Both the position numbers and the translations under genes were made by a program. Below are positions 36,148 to 44,161 of a DNA stretch of 64,000 nt, in pieces. Source of the stretch: an uncultured Klebsiella sp. (lineage in GTDB: Bacteria; Chloroflexota; Chloroflexia; Chloroflexales; Roseiflexaceae); NCBI GenBank assembly GCA_964469045.1, contig CAYXXK010000009.1, forward strand, positions 5,012 to 69,011, read 5' to 3'. Within the stretch, counting starts at the first letter, position 1, and each line of letters begins with the position of its first letter. The notes under the pieces are model-generated. The model was given only the letters and a program-made list of their open reading frames with translations. It was not told the DNA's origin and did not search any database.

Positions 36148-36591
36148 ATGTCAATTACAGCCTATATTGCCGATCAACCACTTGATCGACAGCCAATTAT
36201 CACTCAACTACACGAACAGATTGTCACAAACCTGCCAGATGGATTCGTGGCGACCATACAATACCGCATGATTGGCTACGTGGTGCCACATTCACGCTAT
36301 CCGGCAGGGTATCATGTCAATCCACAAGAGCCCTTGCCATTTATGGCACTGGCAAACCAAAAACACCACATTGCCGTCTACCACCTCGGGTTATACGCCG
36401 ATAGCACGCTGATGGCATGGTTTGTAGCACAACACGAGGCACAAACCAGCACCAAACTCAATATGGGCGCGAGCTGCATCCGTTTTAATCCCAAAAAGGC
36501 TATCCCGTACGACTTGATTGGAGCGCTATCGCGCAAAATGAATATAGACGAGTGGATTGCCCGCTACGAGTCGCGTCGACCCGCATCCTAA
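36148..36591 (+). CDS. DUF1801 (YdhG-like) domain protein
   Basis: Size and the pattern MSITAYIA...LHEQI...MIGY...HIAVYHLGLY...CIRF fit the DUF1801 family as I recall it. Confidence 0.6.
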   Translation: MSITAYIADQPLDRQPIITQLHEQIVTNLPDGFVATIQYRMIGYVVPHSRYPAGYHVNPQEPLPFMALANQKHHIAVYHLGLYADSTLMAWFVAQHEAQTSTKLNMGASCIRFNPKKAIPYDLIGALSRKMNIDEWIARYESRRPAS

Positions 36592-39500
36592 CGCTGGACA
36601 ACAACCGCAACCACCCGTTGATTGTTGGTGGTACTCGTATCAAGCCATGGCTGATTTGCGCGGTCATTTGCACTCCGTACAACGACCGTTACCGATGCAG
36701 TGCCAAGCGAACTCCCAGATATCAACGGAAGTGTGATTACTGATGTGGTATTTGCATTAATCGGGCCAGCAACGACACGCACCAATGGTGTAGCTAGCGT
36801 GAGTGCAATTCTTTTGGGCATACCATCATCAACAAATCTACCACTTGCAGCTGATACCCAGTATTGTCCATCAACGCTGACCTGCATCCGATAGTCACTG
36901 ATATTGCCGTTACTCCCTGCGCCTCGTGGCGTGTAAATAACACTGCCAAGTGCATACCAATTCCCCATATCAATGGTCAACATGTGTGGATGTGCCGATA
37001 CCGCACCACAATAATCCGTGTGCCAATATGTTGCCGTATCGCCATCAAATGCGTTTCGTGCCGGCGCAGATTCACAACTTGTCTCTTGGCTACTTACCTG
37101 TATGGCACGCCACGCACTCTTCGGAATAGCCATTCCCTGAGGGTTGAAGGCGGTCAATTCTGCGACTGCCGTCCATGGCCCATCATTGCCTGCTTCACCG
37201 TCGGCGATTAATCGCATATACCGGTAGCCACTCCGCCATCCTTGACTGTTCGTAGGCATGCGAAACGTACGTGGAAGCGTAGCCTCAATGATGACATTAG
37301 AAACAGCATCAGCGCCAACGTTACGTATCGTCAATGGAATGTCAACGCGCGCATTGCGTCGTGTACTAATCGTGGTTGCTGCAGTCACCGCAACATCAGC
37401 AGTATATGGCGACAGAAACTTCGCCTCAAGTGGGCGAGCTGACTCATACACATACCCGCCTCCGGCCGGAATCTCCCACGCAACCGATGCGTGTGACGTA
37501 CTACTTGCATTTTGGTGCAACAATTCGATGTAATACCGTTGTCCGGCCCTGAGATATATGGATGCGGAGCGTTGGCGACTATCAACAAAGTTCGTAAACC
37601 CACGAAAACTCGTAGCGCTCGTCAAGTCAATAATCGTCACCGAATCGGTTACACGAGCAGACGTACTCAGGCGTAAGCGCGCACTATCATCGCCGGCCAG
37701 CCAAAACCGATAATTACCGCTCACTGGCGGGTGGAGGTACGCTCGTAATCGTTGACCAACAGACGTAGACGTCGTAGATGCCAACTCAAATGTCCCTGTG
37801 CGGATTGTTTGTGTAGTCGGATAGCGCGGGTAATTTGAATGACTCGTCAAACTAGCAATTGTGCTTCCTGCTACTGCATTCCACCGTTCATACAGCACTC
37901 GTCCAGATCCCTGCGTAGCATGGCGTGATTGCGTACCATCAATCAACCATGGACCTGCAATGGCCCGCTGTGCAGTACATGCCGTGATTGTTGCACTAGT
38001 CAGACTAAAGCTCCACTTTTGAAAATGGGGAGCGATATTGGTTTTTGTCACACCACACAACGTTTGCACAAAATAGTTGATTTTTTTAGCATCTGTATCA
38101 AGCGCATCATACGCACTCTGGCTCATATCTCGGTAATGGCGAATCATCTGGGTATACATACCCCAGTTAAGTGTTGGATGTGCGATGCGTACCTGCTCAA
38201 ACAAGGTCAACTGATCAAATGGATCTGCATCTTGCCATTTGTTGGTGATAGACGTGTTATTTAGACGTGCCTGTGCGCGTTTGTAGACATCATCCAACAT
38301 CAACCGCGATGTACCGTGGAGTTTTTCTTCGACATAGAGCGACCACCAGTTGACACTGACTTCGCCACCCATGACATCGGCCCACGCGCCCATCTGGTAG
38401 TTATGACCGATTTCATGCCACACTCCCCACCCTTCAGCACGGCGTGACACATCTGCAGGATCAACCAGCGACCATGCCGTATAGACCATGACCGGAAATC
38501 CATTATGGCCCCAACCAGCACTTATTTGTATATCTTCGGCGATACGTTGCTTGCCTTGTGGTGCAGTATGGGGACGCGCAGCGGTTGGGGATAACCCAGC
38601 CAGCTCATTAATTTTGGTCGATACAGCATCATAATGCGTTGTTAGCTCAACCATTTCAGCATATGTGCGCGTGCGAATTTCGCTTGACGGCGCATGAATA
38701 ACCAACAAATCACTCTCTATTTCGGCAAACGGTACATCCAAATCTCGCCGGGCCAACCACTGTTCTTCTGTAGTCACTCCACGCTTAAAGTACGGTGCTT
38801 GGACAGCATCAGCAATGGTTACCGTAATCGTCGTATTTCGGCTCTGATCCGACCGCAACAGAATAGGGCCACCATACGGTGTGCGGACGTAGTTCACTCC
38901 AGGCTCCAGCTTTACCGTCATGGCAATACGAGGATTACGGCGAAATATGCCGTCACCGACGACATTACCACTATCAGGATAGAGCTCATCAGTATGGACA
39001 CCAAGCTGGGCATACACCTGCGCCATATCAGCACTCGTTGCACCCGACACGGTTATCGTAATAATTTCACTCGGAGCCGCATACAACCCAGTGCTCATCC
39101 AATTTTGTGGCGGCACGTTCATGCGCAGATACCCATGATCACGAAACGCAAGATCAAACACAAACGATTGACTGACGCGATCGGTTTCGCCGACGAGGCC
39201 AGGGAAAATTTCGGGATTACGCACAGCCGACGTCGGAATACTGAATGGCGGTTGTATTCGTGCAACACGATCACGCACTGCATCAAGCGCATAGGCCGAC
39301 GTATCACTCACCACCATTGGATAGGATATCGTTGTTGCGGCGTTGGTCGTCAATGTCGCCAAATCATCAGCGTACCAATAAAACTGTTGATTGTAGCCAT
39401 CATGATTTGGATAGAGCACTAATCGCTTGACATCAACATATACATCAAGTGCAAGATTGGTGGATTGCAAGCGATAGCCATTCACAAAATCAGGGTTTGG

Positions 39501-39842
39501 CTCGGTTTCAATGACATTTGCACCACCATCGCTACAGTCAGCCATATGCAGATCCCAGCTCCATGCAGTAATCTGGGCAATACACAAACTCGCATCGGCA
39601 CGATGTGACCATTGGCCGCTGGCATTCACCGTCCAATACTGCGTATCGAGGCCACGGCACGTGTCAAGGGTAATCTCGCCACCAAGCGACGATCCAGTGA
39701 TACAGAAGCCCGGCAGTGCTCGACTATAGATCATATCGCCACTGCCCGAAGCATGCGTCGATGGCGCTGTCAAAGGCATCCACAAAAGCATCATAACGAA
39801 TACAAGCACAGCCATACGTCGATACCATACATCACGATACAT
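36588..39842 (-). CDS. secreted M60-like (enhancin-type) zinc metallopeptidase with ricin-type lectin, PA14-like and F5/8 type C (discoidin) domains
   Basis: Signal peptide; beta-trefoil QxW motifs (TQYW, QQFYW); HEIGHNYQ zincin motif; PA14-like GNYRFWLAGDDSARLRLS; discoidin-like NAFDGDTATYWHTDY. Start set at 39842 (AGGTGG RBS) to avoid overlap with the upstream gene. Confidence 0.8.
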   Translation of the reverse strand: MYRDVWYRRMAVLVFVMMLLWMPLTAPSTHASGSGDMIYSRALPGFCITGSSLGGEITLDTCRGLDTQYWTVNASGQWSHRADASLCIAQITAWSWDLHMADCSDGGANVIETEPNPDFVNGYRLQSTNLALDVYVDVKRLVLYPNHDGYNQQFYWYADDLATLTTNAATTISYPMVVSDTSAYALDAVRDRVARIQPPFSIPTSAVRNPEIFPGLVGETDRVSQSFVFDLAFRDHGYLRMNVPPQNWMSTGLYAAPSEIITITVSGATSADMAQVYAQLGVHTDELYPDSGNVVGDGIFRRNPRIAMTVKLEPGVNYVRTPYGGPILLRSDQSRNTTITVTIADAVQAPYFKRGVTTEEQWLARRDLDVPFAEIESDLLVIHAPSSEIRTRTYAEMVELTTHYDAVSTKINELAGLSPTAARPHTAPQGKQRIAEDIQISAGWGHNGFPVMVYTAWSLVDPADVSRRAEGWGVWHEIGHNYQMGAWADVMGGEVSVNWWSLYVEEKLHGTSRLMLDDVYKRAQARLNNTSITNKWQDADPFDQLTLFEQVRIAHPTLNWGMYTQMIRHYRDMSQSAYDALDTDAKKINYFVQTLCGVTKTNIAPHFQKWSFSLTSATITACTAQRAIAGPWLIDGTQSRHATQGSGRVLYERWNAVAGSTIASLTSHSNYPRYPTTQTIRTGTFELASTTSTSVGQRLRAYLHPPVSGNYRFWLAGDDSARLRLSTSARVTDSVTIIDLTSATSFRGFTNFVDSRQRSASIYLRAGQRYYIELLHQNASSTSHASVAWEIPAGGGYVYESARPLEAKFLSPYTADVAVTAATTISTRRNARVDIPLTIRNVGADAVSNVIIEATLPRTFRMPTNSQGWRSGYRYMRLIADGEAGNDGPWTAVAELTAFNPQGMAIPKSAWRAIQVSSQETSCESAPARNAFDGDTATYWHTDYCGAVSAHPHMLTIDMGNWYALGSVIYTPRGAGSNGNISDYRMQVSVDGQYWVSAASGRFVDDGMPKRIALTLATPLVRVVAGPINANTTSVITLPLISGSSLGTASVTVVVRSANDRANQPWLDTSTTNNQRVVAVVVQR

Positions 39843-39864
39843 AGACCACCTGTTACATTTTTGT

Positions 39865-40980
39865 TTATTGCATGCGTGCAAGCAACTCAAACACGATGGG
39901 TTGCATACGCTCAATGCCCCACATCAACCACCCGCTGTACCACAACCATCCCACCGAGCCAAACAAAAGAACAACGACGATACCACGCCGCGATCGACGA
40001 GGCATAGTCACTACAGTTGCATCGTGAAGTGTATCAACCCGCTCATGCAAGCGATTGATTTCAATGCGCATATCTGCCGTAATTTGTTGCTGTGCGGCCA
40101 ACACACGATGCACTTTTTCTAGGGTAAGAAGCGTTTGCGTATCAGGACCTTTGGGGACAGGCAAGGCGGCAATATAGTGTTGCAGTTGATCGATCCGCTC
40201 TTCAAGCATACGCCGACCATCCACAACGGCTTCTGCGGTACCACTGACAAGCAGCAGTTGATCCTGCCGTAATTGGCTCACCTGCAGTTGCAACGTCTCT
40301 AGATGCCGTTGAGTTTGCTGTGTCTCTTGTTGATGTGTCGAAATACTCGCCTCTATGTCGAGAATCTGTTGTGCATATTGCGTGTACTGCTCCTTTTGAC
40401 GTACTGCATCTGCATGTTGTTGCTGTGCCTGTTGGATTGCTGTCAGCTGAGACGCATATTCAAGGCTTTGGGCACGAGCATACACGAGTTGGAGTTGAAT
40501 GCGTCGCTCTGCTGACTGATAGTGTTCCGGCAAAAGTGCCACCATCTGCATCATACGCGCAATCGAATCAATAATCATGGCGCCCGTCAATTGCCCCTGA
40601 TGATTCAACGCATTGCGCCGTAGTCGAATCAAACGCAACTCTTTCAATGGCGGTACAAACGCCGGTCGCACATCGACTTGCGCGGATCCGTTCGGCGCAA
40701 ACAGTACCGATGCATACCCAGTACGACCAGTATGCAACCCGCCATCGTGTGTCATCAGGTGAATAAGCGCCAAAAAATCAGGCCGTGGTTGACCATCAAC
40801 AAAATCCACATAAATCGCCGTGCGCTCACGCTTCGCTAGGCTATGCAAATGACTACTAAGTCGCTCGCCAAAATGCGCACGCATATGATCAAGTACATAC
40901 GGCGCATAGGCCGTCTGAAACAATTCGATTGCCTGTGCCATATACAATCGTTGGAGGGGCACTTCGGTAGCATGAACCAT
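39865..40980 (-). CDS. Swt1-like HEPN domain protein with long Gln-rich coiled coil and a C-terminal TM anchor
   Basis: N-terminal helical domain ending LKELRLIRLRRNALNHQ (Rx4H at 40600-40617); about 170 aa of heptad-like Q/L-rich sequence; C-terminal hydrophobic helix GIVVVLLFGSVGWLWYSGWLMWG. ATG at 40980 has GGAGG upstream. Confidence 0.65.
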   Translation of the reverse strand: MVHATEVPLQRLYMAQAIELFQTAYAPYVLDHMRAHFGERLSSHLHSLAKRERTAIYVDFVDGQPRPDFLALIHLMTHDGGLHTGRTGYASVLFAPNGSAQVDVRPAFVPPLKELRLIRLRRNALNHQGQLTGAMIIDSIARMMQMVALLPEHYQSAERRIQLQLVYARAQSLEYASQLTAIQQAQQQHADAVRQKEQYTQYAQQILDIEASISTHQQETQQTQRHLETLQLQVSQLRQDQLLLVSGTAEAVVDGRRMLEERIDQLQHYIAALPVPKGPDTQTLLTLEKVHRVLAAQQQITADMRIEINRLHERVDTLHDATVVTMPRRSRRGIVVVLLFGSVGWLWYSGWLMWGIERMQPIVFELLARMQ

Positions 40981-41059
40981 TTCGTATACCTCCATTGCGC
41001 AGTATGCGTATCATAGCACGGCATCATATGCGATTGCACCTGACCATTTGAGATGCGTC

Positions 41060-41098
41060 GCTCCCTCCACGCCGTAGTGAACGACGCATGGAGGGAGC
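41060..41098 (-). other. stem-loop downstream of rmuC (no T-tract)
   Basis: 10-bp stem gctccctcca / tggagggagc, with an alternative 6-bp pairing tgcgtc / gacgca. Confidence 0.45.
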
Positions 41099-41128
41099 AA
41101 CAACACGGATAGGCGAACGCATCACACA

Positions 41129-42211
41129 TCAGTCATTGATTTGTTTAATCTGAGTGATCTCAACTTCAGGCTCAGAAGGTATCAAAACCTCGATTGACTC
41201 GGGGCGCAGTTGATTGATTTTCTCGAGTTGTGGCACCACACGCGTGTTCCACGAGCTAGCCATTGCGTTGAGCGACTTATTGAGTTTGGCCAGATTGGTG
41301 CCAATATCGTCGTAATGCCCCATAAACGTCTTGAGTCGTTTAGTAAGTTCTTTGATCGAATCAAGCAGGCTCAAGGCGTTGGCAACCTCTTGACGTTGGC
41401 GCCAGCTGAAGTTTGCGGTACGCAACAGGGCCATCAACGTACCCGGTGTGGCAATGATGATATTGCGACTCAACGCAAAATCGACAATAGAATCGACATC
41501 ACTACGCCCCTCGTCCGCAAACGCCAAACTCCCCTCTACCTGGATGTACATCACGGTAAACGGCAGACTATTATTATCTCCGTGATAATTGCGTTTCACC
41601 AAGGCCATCACATGATCTTTGATGGCTTGATACTGCTGTCGCGCCAGTTCGGTGCGAGACTTTGCGTCAGGTGCTGCAACACCCTCAACATAGGCATTCA
41701 GCGAGATTTTGGCATCGACATAGACAACCGAATTATTGGCAAATTTAATTGCCATATCGGGGCGCCCCTCAGCAGTCCCACGTTGCACATCAAAATCAAC
41801 ATACTCACTCATACCACTCAACTCCACCAGCCGGCGCAACTGCAGCTCTCCCCAACTACCCATTTGTTTGTTGTTGCGCAAGGCACTGTCGAGCTTTTGT
41901 GTCTCACGACTAATTTGCTCACTGGCAGTTACCACTTGACGAATATTCTCACCGAGCTGCCCGAGTTTTTCGGATTGCGCCACTTGCAACTCACCCATAC
42001 GTGACTCGATACGTTGCACCTCTTGGCTGATGCGCACAATCGTCTCATCTAACATGGCCTTGGTGGTTGCACTTGTTTCATCTAATACCTCAGTGGCAAT
42101 ACTTTTGGCCTGTTCTTGGCGCTTGCCGTAATACAACATGGCTGCGCCTGCTGACAATGCAGCCCCCAACATAAAGCCAATCCCATACGCAAATGTCGGT
42201 TCCACACACAT
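41129..42211 (-). CDS. rmuC: DNA recombination protein RmuC (N-terminal TM helix and coiled coil, C-terminal PD-(D/E)xK-like nuclease domain)
   Basis: MGSWGELQLRRLVELSGM...VDFDVQ...RPDMAI...VYVDAKISL...FTVMYIQVE matches the RmuC family pattern. Confidence 0.85.
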   Translation of the reverse strand: MCVEPTFAYGIGFMLGAALSAGAAMLYYGKRQEQAKSIATEVLDETSATTKAMLDETIVRISQEVQRIESRMGELQVAQSEKLGQLGENIRQVVTASEQISRETQKLDSALRNNKQMGSWGELQLRRLVELSGMSEYVDFDVQRGTAEGRPDMAIKFANNSVVYVDAKISLNAYVEGVAAPDAKSRTELARQQYQAIKDHVMALVKRNYHGDNNSLPFTVMYIQVEGSLAFADEGRSDVDSIVDFALSRNIIIATPGTLMALLRTANFSWRQRQEVANALSLLDSIKELTKRLKTFMGHYDDIGTNLAKLNKSLNAMASSWNTRVVPQLEKINQLRPESIEVLIPSEPEVEITQIKQIND

Positions 42212-42280
42212 TTCCTTTCACAATAATTACCTATTACGTCACCAAAAATATTGTAGCATATATTTTACATGTACTACATT

Positions 42281-42308
42281 AAAAAAAATAGGGGAGCTAC
42301 AGCTCCCC
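42281..42308 (-). terminator. rho-independent terminator closing the HEPN-like / zinc-ribbon-TM gene pair
   Basis: Perfect 8-bp stem ggggagct / agctcccc (42291-42308). On the minus strand it is followed by T8 (42281-42288). It sits in a region of about 27 percent GC. Confidence 0.7.
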
Positions 42309-42470
42309 TAAAAATTTCATCGCATTACAATCAATAAAATTGATGTTTATTTAAAAAAATTATATGAGCGAAAAATGATAGTTTTGTGAGTAATTTTTAG
42401 CAGTTTATTTGCACATTTCCCCGCACACATATCAAACATTTTCTATGCACACGCATAATCTATGACAGGG

Positions 42471-43010
42471 TCATTCACGTGCGTATTCCGCCAAGATGCG
42501 TGCATAATCGCGCGCACGAAATGCGGTAAGTGTGGCAAGAAGTTGGAGTGCGGTCATTAGAAATCCAACAGAAGTGAGCATTGGCCAAGTATGCACTGCT
42601 GGTGCCCAGGCCAACTGCCAGTTACGCCACAGACTTATCGTAAGCACACACGCAACGCCCAAACATGCAAGAGCACTAATAAACGCAACTACTCCCAAAA
42701 ATTGATAGAACGACGCTTGTCGCATCAACACCCGAACAGTTGGGCGCGCAATAGGATGTACCTCACCATGCACATTCGGCTGTGGACGCCTAAAGAGCGA
42801 CAGATAGTCATCATCAACGCGATCCTTGACAGGTGGGATGACTACTAACTGCTGACCACTCAATGCCGGGGCATCGTCACGGATCGCAGTAACCGGCACA
42901 TCGATGATGTGCGCATGCACTAGTGATGTATGACATGTTGCACATACGACATTCGTCAAGGCGCATACACGCTTGCAGTTAGGGCACACTTTGTGCCGAA
43001 TTTTGGGCAT
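42471..43010 (-). CDS. hypothetical zinc-ribbon protein with two C-terminal TM helices
   Basis: CPNC-x10-CATC at the N-terminus and two hydrophobic helices (FLGVVAFISALACLGVACVLTISLW; MLTSVGFLMTALQLLATLTAF). ATG at 43010 with GAGG upstream is preferred over the GTG at 43043. Confidence 0.55.
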   Translation of the reverse strand: MPKIRHKVCPNCKRVCALTNVVCATCHTSLVHAHIIDVPVTAIRDDAPALSGQQLVVIPPVKDRVDDDYLSLFRRPQPNVHGEVHPIARPTVRVLMRQASFYQFLGVVAFISALACLGVACVLTISLWRNWQLAWAPAVHTWPMLTSVGFLMTALQLLATLTAFRARDYARILAEYARE

Positions 43011-43105
43011 CAACACACCTCTGCACATACGCTCTATTGCCACATGCGCTGGTGCGCAATGACATGCCAGACACCCCTAACACAAAAAAATAGCCCATCA
43101 GTATG

Positions 43106-44161
43106 CTATACATCGGTGGTAGTAATGGTGATACCCCGTACATTCGCTTTGTCGAACATGACTTTGGTGACACGACAATACCCACGAAACACCACATCAG
43201 ATTGACCTGACACTCTTTGGAACAGTGGAACTGGCATGGTATGCTCACCAATAACGCCTTGCCAATCATCAAGCAACTTCACAGGGTTCTCAAGCATAAC
43301 CATACCCTCAGCACCTATGGCTTGTACAGGTGCCACCACATAACAAAATCGTCTATTTACCATTGGCATGTCGAAACGAATACTGCCGGCGAGGCGTTGA
43401 TATACCTCAAGCCGTGAAAGAGATGCACCACGCACAACGCCATCGAGTTGAAGCGCAATTCGTTGTGCATACAGTCCATCATCTGCATACAGTGCTCGTT
43501 CGCTCGCAAGTCGCCTCGTCATTTTGTTACGCATATTCTGCATATGTGAATACAATCGTCGCAGGAATCCCAACACACCATCGCTAAAATGTGCCGAGCG
43601 AAACATGGCATCATGAACGAGTGCATTGCGCACTTTGGTGAATTGTTCAAGCAGATGGAAGGTGTGCACATCAACATCATGACTCCACAGCAAAAAGCGA
43701 CAGATGCGCAATGCTTCGGTCACATCTCGTTTGAGTTTGTATTTTTGCTGTGGATCATTCTGGATTACTTCGTAAATTTCAGCTTCTTCGGCAGCCGTCA
43801 ATGGTTGCGTCCCATTAATCACGGCCATGCGCTGACGATACATGGCCCGCAAGCGATTTTCGATGAGAGAGCAGAGCAGCATGACGGCACCCATGCGGGC
43901 AAGCATGCTGTCAGATGCGAAGGTCAATGCATCATCCTGCATCGCGTCATCTTCTATAGTTTGTTCGGACGGAACGATTTGACGAATTTGTTTCATTGCC
44001 GATTCAAGATCAACATACACTGCGCTCGTATCAACTGTTTTGACCACGCCGATGATACGTTCAAAATCAACACTGGGTATCAGTGGGTATTTTTGTTTTG
44101 TGTGCTCATAATTTTGAAATGTAGCTTCAACAAGCTGGAAGCGTACGTGATTGTTTGACAT
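43106..44161 (-). CDS. hypothetical protein with a central HEPN-like domain (Rx4H) and an unassigned C-terminal domain
   Basis: Helical region LLCSLIENRLRAMYRQ ... LLEQFTKVRNALVHDAMF (R178-H183 encoded at 43613-43630). GAGG RBS and a TATAAT box (44191-44196) lie upstream. Confidence 0.55.
   Translation of the reverse strand: MSNNHVRFQLVEATFQNYEHTKQKYPLIPSVDFERIIGVVKTVDTSAVYVDLESAMKQIRQIVPSEQTIEDDAMQDDALTFASDSMLARMGAVMLLCSLIENRLRAMYRQRMAVINGTQPLTAAEEAEIYEVIQNDPQQKYKLKRDVTEALRICRFLLWSHDVDVHTFHLLEQFTKVRNALVHDAMFRSAHFSDGVLGFLRRLYSHMQNMRNKMTRRLASERALYADDGLYAQRIALQLDGVVRGASLSRLEVYQRLAGSIRFDMPMVNRRFCYVVAPVQAIGAEGMVMLENPVKLLDDWQGVIGEHTMPVPLFQRVSGQSDVVFRGYCRVTKVMFDKANVRGITITTTDV

Follow-up and report, generated by a model that had tools for sequence, protein, structure and literature searches.

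A divergent Swt1-type HEPN domain joined through a long stalk to a predicted C-terminal membrane anchor in freshwater Roseiflexaceae

Background

HEPN ribonucleases (RNases) serve as the killing or arresting module in many systems of immunity and toxicity, among them Cas13, Csm6/Csx1, RnlA, Abi proteins, RNase L and Ire1, and how they are restrained is a central question. In RNase Y, a single transmembrane (TM) anchor and a coiled coil tether an endoribonuclease to the membrane. The present paper concerns a gene at positions 39865-40980 on the minus strand of a 64-kb window (64,000 nucleotides (nt) of contig CAYXXK010000009.1, the whole stretch of DNA that was analysed), whose source genome is labelled G000. 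Its 371-residue product (P0001; the coordinates include the stop codon), referred to below as the target, is predicted to be held in the membrane by a C-terminal TM helix, from which a long helical stalk leads to an N-terminal HEPN domain of divergent Swt1 type. To our knowledge, none of the membrane HEPN groups with a canonical motif that were predicted previously has been tested experimentally. All coordinates given below lie on the minus strand of the window.

HEPN RNases act as face-to-face dimers in which two Rx4-6H motifs form the site (PMC3710099; bioRxiv 10.1101/2021.11.02.466367). Three groups of bacterial TM-HEPN proteins have been predicted, and stimulus-dependent RNA degradation at the membrane was proposed for them (Anantharaman et al. 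2013, PMC3710099). They comprise DUF4145 proteins with an N-terminal WP-TM, Abi2/Swt1 HEPN domains located behind a TM helix (STY4199 type), and HEPN-2TM-Zn-ribbon proteins (PMC3710099). Csx28, which Cas13b activates, assembles face to back into an octameric pore and shows no nuclease activity (bioRxiv 10.1101/2021.11.02.466367). Swt1-type domains are not specifically related to the KEN-type HEPN domain (PMC3710099). The initial annotation of the target, which was made from the DNA alone, named no characterised protein with a HEPN head tethered to the membrane through a long stalk; read as a statement that no membrane-tethered HEPN protein is known, this was too strong, as both Ire1 (KEN/HEPN) and Csx28 have been characterised, in addition to the three predicted groups.

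Results and discussion

Homology of the N-terminal domain to Swt1-type HEPN domains

The N-terminal domain spans about residues 8-150 (40531-40959) and is identified by profile-profile homology to PF18731 (HEPN_Swt1) domains. When the family alignment of this region (A2, 18 sequences) was compared by hhalign with 12 bona fide PF18731 domains from Chloroflexales genomes (A3, drawn from a collected set with E-values (E) of 1e-43 to 1e-9), the two matched with a probability of 98.4% and an E of 4.2e-15 over 122 columns, whereas the control with A3 reversed gave 0.2% and an E of 0.28. Against A3, the orthologues alone reached 95.5% (E 1.4e-8) and the paralogues alone 98.5% (E 3.7e-15). RRNALNH of A2 falls on RNKWAH of A3, D68 on a conserved D and F94 on a conserved F. 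In the reverse direction, the hidden Markov model built from A2 retrieves the genuine Swt1-HEPN proteins of the genus (E 2e-6 to 9e-4). Paralogues of the target also match PF18731 itself; their scores are 21-26 bits (E 1e-5 to 4e-4), the matches cover positions 2-110 of the 115 in the model, and they link the target to the Pfam family.

The putative catalytic Rx4H motif, R122-N123-A-L-N-H127 (40600-40617), lies within LKELRLIRLRRNALNHQGQLT (residues 112-132), with the R122 codon at 40615-40617 and the H127 codon at 40600-40602. It is invariant in the 17 orthologues and aligns with RN..AH of PF18731. R121, R122, N123, L125 and H127 are all unchanged among these homologues, which are 46-64% identical, so that the dyad read from the single sequence in the initial annotation is real and goes beyond a chance Rx4H; conservation of both its residues had been proposed there as a check. 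The motif of the paralogues is RNxWAH, or RNSWANH (Rx5H) in one clade. A second invariant element, DGGL (residues 79-82; 40735-40746), opens a family-specific insert of about 35 residues. D79, G80, G81 and L82 are fixed in the orthologues and in all paralogues, and nothing equivalent is present in bona fide Swt1 domains.

An AlphaFold model of residues 1-160 was good (predicted local distance difference test (pLDDT) 81, predicted template modelling score 0.79), with helices at 9-51, 69-77, 112-126 and 133-148, positions that match those of Swt1 domains. Two results count against the assignment. The N-terminal 165 residues of the target score 13.5 bits against PF18731 (E 0.093), which is under the Pfam gathering threshold of 27.5 bits, and Foldseek returned no HEPN structure for either the full-length model (PDB) or the domain model (PDB and BFVD), the best E for residues 1-160 not being below 0.3. 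Direct scans of the target protein against Pfam, PADLOC and NCBIfam gave no significant family and only coiled-coil noise, and nothing meaningful was obtained from PDB sequences with phmmer or the family profile.

The low Pfam score and the lack of a structural match could be taken to mean that the Rx4H arose by chance within a helical domain that has no relation to HEPN, and that the target is a coiled-coil membrane protein of no known type. This seems very improbable in view of the difference between the forward and reversed profile comparisons, the direct Pfam matches of the paralogues, the reciprocal profile match, and the conservation in the family of the Swt1 core positions D, F, R, N and H. 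The Swt1-type reading, first proposed from the pattern around the dyad, is therefore supported at the level of homology by profile-profile comparison, even though the target alone falls under the Pfam cut-off. Of the refuting outcomes named in the initial annotation, the two open to computation, lack of a HEPN-clan profile match and loss of the R/H positions in homologues, were not observed. The domain is best described as a HEPN domain of Swt1 type that has diverged but keeps its R-N-x3-H motif intact, and HEPN homology together with the architecture described below is held with high confidence.

Separately, the sole PDB sequence match was a look-alike of 30 residues, DF..LIHL..EDGGLR, in the C-terminal domain of yeast PMS1 (4e4w_B, E 0.04). 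Residues 68-97 of A2, D(F/V)xALI(H/Y)L(M/L)TxDGGLR, resemble the PMS1 sequence DFNELIHLIKEDGGLRR, probably by chance.

Helical stalk and membrane anchor

The HEPN domain is followed by a helical stalk rich in Gln and Leu (residues 157-320; 40021-40512), recognised by its composition (18% Gln and 13% Leu), its AlphaFold helices and its periodicity. The helices are predicted at 157-245, 249-271 and 281-320, and a hydrophobic period of 3.5 residues exceeds that of shuffled sequences (P ~0.001). In library scans, the only matches of the stalk were weak ones to the coiled-coil models of SMC, JetC and ZorA. The Gln-rich coiled coil of about 170 residues proposed earlier stands as a helical stalk, with the correction that two conserved breaks interrupt it.

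Conservation along the stalk is uneven. Mean pairwise identity is 0.42-0.45 over most of its length, compared with 0.72-0.74 in the HEPN helices and 0.62 in the TM helix, and two islands rise above this level: the hinge LRQDQLLLVSGTAEAVVDGR (residues 237-256; 40213-40272; identity 0.70), which contains the invariant G247 and in which the AlphaFold break at 245-249 falls, and the membrane-proximal segment LAAQQQITADMRIE.NR.HE (residues 291-320; 40021-40110; identity 0.72). This pattern suggests that the stalk is more than a spacer. It may run as a single extended coiled coil or double back on itself as a hairpin. Its 164 helical residues would span about 24 nm if extended, and the head would lie near the membrane if the stalk is folded back at the hinge. 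The full-length AlphaFold model is poor (pLDDT 64.7).

Only one 19-residue window passes the Kyte-Doolittle value of 1.6, namely 334-352 (IVVVLLFGSVGWLWYSGWL), which agrees with the single C-terminal TM helix noted at the outset. By hydropathy, this helix covers residues 333-356 (GIVVVLLFGSVGWLWYSGWLMWGI; 39913-39984). It is preceded by RRSRR, and by the positive-inside rule the N-terminus should therefore be cytoplasmic. Beyond the helix there is only a short, poorly conserved extracytoplasmic tail (residues 357-371; 39868-39912; mean pairwise identity 0.33), which has 15 residues in the target and only 7-11 in the paralogues. From these features the target is inferred to be a tail-anchored protein of the inner membrane, with all but the short tail in the cytoplasm.

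Within the TM helix, GWLWYSGWLMWG is nearly invariant among orthologues and W345 is invariant in the whole family. Such conservation goes well beyond the need of a simple anchor, and raises the alternative of a non-catalytic membrane protein, whose HEPN-like domain would bind RNA or protein or oligomerise while the Trp/Gly-rich TM helices form a pore or scaffold, by analogy with Csx28. Csx28 provides a precedent for a non-nuclease HEPN pore (bioRxiv 10.1101/2021.11.02.466367), and the HEPN domains of eukaryotic Swt1 are thought to be inactive (PMC3710099). However, the full R-N-x3-H is invariant in the orthologues and kept in the paralogues apart from the one Rx5H variant, whereas the motif of Csx28 is divergent; the TM sequences of the paralogues are quite unlike that of the target; and neither Cas13b nor another activator is found among the neighbours. 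A non-catalytic role of this kind is thought quite unlikely.

According to the preferred reading, which is given a probability of about 0.5, the target is an endoribonuclease that is tethered to the membrane, dimerises through its stalk and acts in the response to stress or in defence against phages. The stalk and the Trp/Gly-rich TM helix would pair two chains in parallel with their HEPN domains facing each other, and the two Rx4H motifs could then make up the composite RNase site usual in HEPN enzymes, which would cut RNA on the cytoplasmic side of the membrane. The hinge (237-256) and the membrane-proximal segment (291-320) are candidate places where this activity might be gated. The protein would act as a stand-alone effector of the abortive-infection type, switched on by a membrane-borne signal. 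That the target is an active RNase, taken by itself, is considered somewhat more probable than the complete proposal.

Conservation and selection

Across orthologues and paralogues, R122, N123, D68, DGGL (79-82), F94, G247 and W345 are invariant, and H127 is nearly so. Between the closest pair of orthologues (G017 and G009, with 0.62 synonymous substitutions per site (dS)), the ratio of nonsynonymous substitutions (dN) to dS is 0.12; by region, it is 0.14 in the head, 0.06 in the stalk and 0.26 at the C-terminus. It can be seen that this is a real gene and that all three parts are under purifying selection.

When the window was compared with its syntenic relatives, dS approached saturation in all genes of the locus, and the genes differed widely in dN: 0.02-0.03 for GH77, 0.04-0.06 for RmuC, 0.16-0.24 for the M60 peptidase and 0.37-0.43 for the target. 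The target thus evolves 7-15 times faster than RmuC and GH77 nearby, a rate that is equalled or exceeded at this locus by the Zn-ribbon TM protein alone. Recent transfer or allelic replacement as the source of the low identity was ruled out, because dS is near saturation throughout the locus.

Start site and expression signals

A minus-strand open reading frame (ORF) of 376 residues is present at 39865-40995. The target starts at the ATG at 40980, and the same aligned Met opens every homologue. A ribosome-binding site, GGAGG, lies 8 nt before this ATG (40989-40993) and is unchanged across the orthologous loci save one with GGAGA; the upstream ATG at 40995 falls within this site's conserved ATGGAGG. 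The ORF length, the preferred start and the position of R122/H127 had all been given correctly in the initial annotation.

The spacer between RmuC and the target cannot be aligned between species, except for the ribosome-binding site and, about 16 nt before it, TGCTAT(G/C/A)AT. This element, TGCTATGAT in the window (41010-41018), is conserved in five of five orthologous loci as TGCTAT[G/C/A]AT, and is inferred from its conservation to be an extended -10 promoter belonging to the target itself. A scan for promoter consensus did not list it, as there is no good -35. Taken together with GGAGG, the putative extended -10 implies a target transcript with a 5' untranslated region of about 20 nt. Directly after the RmuC stop, a long GC-rich hairpin is found at 41060-41098 with no T-tract behind it; it occurs in the window only and is not kept in the orthologous loci. 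Nothing above threshold was returned by an Rfam scan of 39500-42500. The 148-nt spacer holds a putative promoter and a hairpin, and is judged to contain no credible small gene.

Distribution of the family

The family is small. Among 5.8 billion proteins, a query with one sequence found 17 clusters and a profile found 24, and a phmmer search of the N-terminal domain against 1.84 billion representatives gave four clusters, all of this family. The named records belong without exception to metagenome-assembled genomes of freshwater Roseiflexaceae or Chloroflexota. Although one public record, CAYZZI010000033.1, bears the title 'uncultured Klebsiella sp.', it shows synteny with the Roseiflexaceae locus and 70-96% protein identity, and the taxon label is evidently wrong. 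Within the genus, the orthologue is present in 5 of 25 genomes and the paralogue in 9, with both in 4 and any member in 10. No family members were found in 36 other Chloroflexales genomes.

The paralogues form a lineage in the same genus, with 388-445 residues and 26-30% identity to the target. Their layout is the same as that of the target, consisting of the N-terminal domain, Q-rich helices and a C-terminal TM helix. Against PADLOC-DB 2.0 they gave one weak coiled-coil match (PDC-S37, E 4.9e-4), and no antitoxin-like gene was seen with this lineage either.

Genomic neighbourhood

The gene order at the locus is PARG, a 351-residue HEPN protein, a Zn-ribbon TM protein, RmuC, the target and an M60 peptidase, followed by GH77 on the opposite strand. 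The order from PARG to GH77 recurs in G000, G009, G011, G017 and a metagenome contig. Downstream, the gene for a secreted M60-like peptidase (36588-39842; identified by its Pfam domains) starts 22 nt after the target stop. The peptidase bears a signal peptide, and the spacing is 20-30 nt in four loci. No terminator lies between the genes, so that M60 is probably co-transcribed with the target. M60 was rejected as an obligate partner because the target is intact both in G015, which lacks M60, and in G009, where M60 is fragmented. In the latter genome (C108; L070 4129-7127) M60 is broken up into four reading frames, through decay or assembly error, and the adjoining HEPN gene is intact.

Upstream, RmuC (41129-42211; PF02646, E 7e-67) forms a separate transcription unit and adjoins the target in five of six orthologous loci. 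It was also rejected as an obligate partner, since it does not stand beside the paralogues, is replaced in G015 by an RCC1-repeat gene, and precedes a target with its own putative promoter. The replacing gene (G015:C50; L003 1108-3675) encodes an RCC1-repeat protein of 855 residues (PF25390, E 2e-106) and stands, ahead of the target, where RmuC and the Zn-ribbon gene would otherwise be. Species of the genus that have no target carry other genes behind RmuC: either an HNH_2 endonuclease, a YbjN/TY-Chap1-like protein and an AAA ATPase, or a secreted protein of the metallo-beta-lactamase (MBL) fold (L063 1520-4373; L065 4121-5536). The slot is therefore variable.

The second HEPN gene of the window, which encodes the 351-residue protein with the motif RNALVH, and the adjoining Zn-ribbon TM gene occupy 42471-44161, and their dN is also high (0.2-0.5). 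The pair looks like a split version of the fused group with HEPN, two TM helices and a Zn-ribbon (PMC3710099).

Defence, stress or housekeeping

A role for the target as a defence or stress effector, and not in housekeeping, can be proposed only tentatively from the genomic evidence. It is favoured because of the patchy distribution, the fast evolution, and the location in a variable part of the chromosome beside two other conflict-type modules. The second HEPN protein, the Zn-ribbon TM protein, RmuC and PARG are all near. Several observations speak against it. No antitoxin, immunity or nucleotidyltransferase gene is visible beside the target, whose neighbours are RmuC and M60, and no mobile-element genes lie near it, the locus being syntenic and vertically inherited. 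Searches by tblastn of phage and plasmid collections found no relatives, and the only matches of the target in PADLOC-DB 2.0 were to coiled coils, with an E of 0.007 or worse (DruC, JetC, ZorA). No cas gene, including Cas13b, is present among its annotated neighbours. The paralogue has a core-gene setting, between DUF4349 and an ABC-2 permease and near dnaX and recR. Finally, no ectodomain able to sense outside signals is present on the target.

Much of this would be expected of a housekeeping or regulatory membrane RNase that, like RNase Y or Ire1 in regulated Ire1-dependent decay (RIDD), trims or degrades mRNAs translated at the membrane, for example that of M60, in the ordinary upkeep of the envelope or of secretion. 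A chromosomal, vertically inherited gene with a conserved promoter of its own, close upstream of a signal-peptide gene in four loci, would suit such a role, as would the purifying selection on the target, the setting of the paralogue beside dnaX, recR, DUF4349 and the ABC-2 transporter, and the lack of a visible restraint gene. The genus also keeps another membrane HEPN protein, of the HEPN-TM-sunset type described below, in about 20 of its 25 genomes. Nevertheless, with a member in only 10 of the 25 genomes of the genus and nowhere else, the family is dispensable; the target changes far faster than its neighbours; and where M60 is lost or broken, the target is intact. A housekeeping role is on these grounds regarded as unlikely, though it is the first alternative to be considered.

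A more specific possibility, suggested by analogy and considered rather improbable, is that of a minimal bacterial counterpart of Ire1, tail-anchored and lacking an ectodomain, in which the Trp/Gly-rich TM helix would sense the bilayer (lipid packing, depolarisation or lesions made by phages), the hinge would relay the signal across many nanometres and turn on the HEPN dimer, and membrane-translated mRNAs would be cut. The family consists of a compact single gene of 371 residues with no partner and no ectodomain, and the only possible inputs would be the bilayer and the stalk. It would make a clean model for whether membrane state gates a bacterial RNase. Its significance is limited by the very small size of the family and by its restriction to uncultured Roseiflexaceae of fresh water.

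Comparison with known systems

Like the three predicted groups of bacterial TM-HEPN proteins, the target would have a cytoplasmic, apparently active HEPN domain on an inner-membrane protein; it belongs to the Abi2/Swt1 branch, and RNA cleavage at the membrane is again a prediction (PMC3710099). In those groups, however, the TM segments are N-terminal to the HEPN domain or between it and a Zn ribbon, and outer domains exist, whereas the target consists of HEPN, a stalk of about 165 residues and a C-terminal anchor, with practically no outer part. Proteins of the STY4199 type have a TM helix N-terminal to HEPN and an outer alpha-helical domain before it; the only TM helix of the target is at 333-356.

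The nearest sequence family is PF18731, whose local members are HmaC ATPases and the HEPN-TM-sunset protein described below. The HmaC/DUF499 ATPases of Hma defence have a homologous N-terminal domain (hhalign 97.5%, E 8.5e-12) with the same D, F and RN..H, and the reference Swt1 domains sit at the N-terminus of HmaC (PADLOC PDLC00662, E 7e-214). Unlike HmaC, the target has no DUF499 AAA+ ATPase and no methylase or helicase partner; its domain, which contains the DGGL insert of about 35 residues, is under the Pfam cut-off and leads into the stalk and the TM anchor. Another membrane-anchored relative is encoded in the same genome. This 265-residue HEPN-TM-sunset protein (G000:C11:35191-35526; L044 311-1108) matches PF18731 with an E of 8.7e-25 and the sunset model NF051437 with an E of 1.4e-12, and C11:35191 was the only hit in a six-frame search of the genome with PF18731. 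It shares with the target a Swt1-type HEPN domain at the N-terminus and a single pass through the membrane (hhalign 97.2%, E 4.6e-11), but it is a bona fide PF18731 member, lacks the stalk and has a C-terminal sunset domain outside the membrane. The presence of both types in one genus suggests that membrane-anchored HEPN is a theme of this lineage.

Csx28, the accessory of type VI-B2 CRISPR systems, is also bacterial, small and membrane-bound; its HEPN-like domain has four helices, and it acts in defence. No sequence similarity between it and the target was found; its TM helix is N-terminal, its HEPN motif divergent and a coiled-coil stalk absent, while the target has a C-terminal anchor and a canonical motif. 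Ire1 and RNase L, with KEN-type HEPN domains, are comparable as a functional analogy, that of membrane anchoring and a HEPN RNase activated by dimerisation or oligomerisation, so that RNA is cut at a membrane in response to a signal; they are eukaryotic and have a kinase domain, a lumenal sensor and a C-terminal HEPN. RNase Y differs in its N-terminal anchor and its catalytic part of HD and KH domains, and is near-universal in Firmicutes, whereas the target family is genus-restricted and patchy. The novelty of the target is therefore the order of its parts, HEPN, long stalk and C-terminal anchor, which makes it a variant of the predicted membrane-HEPN class.

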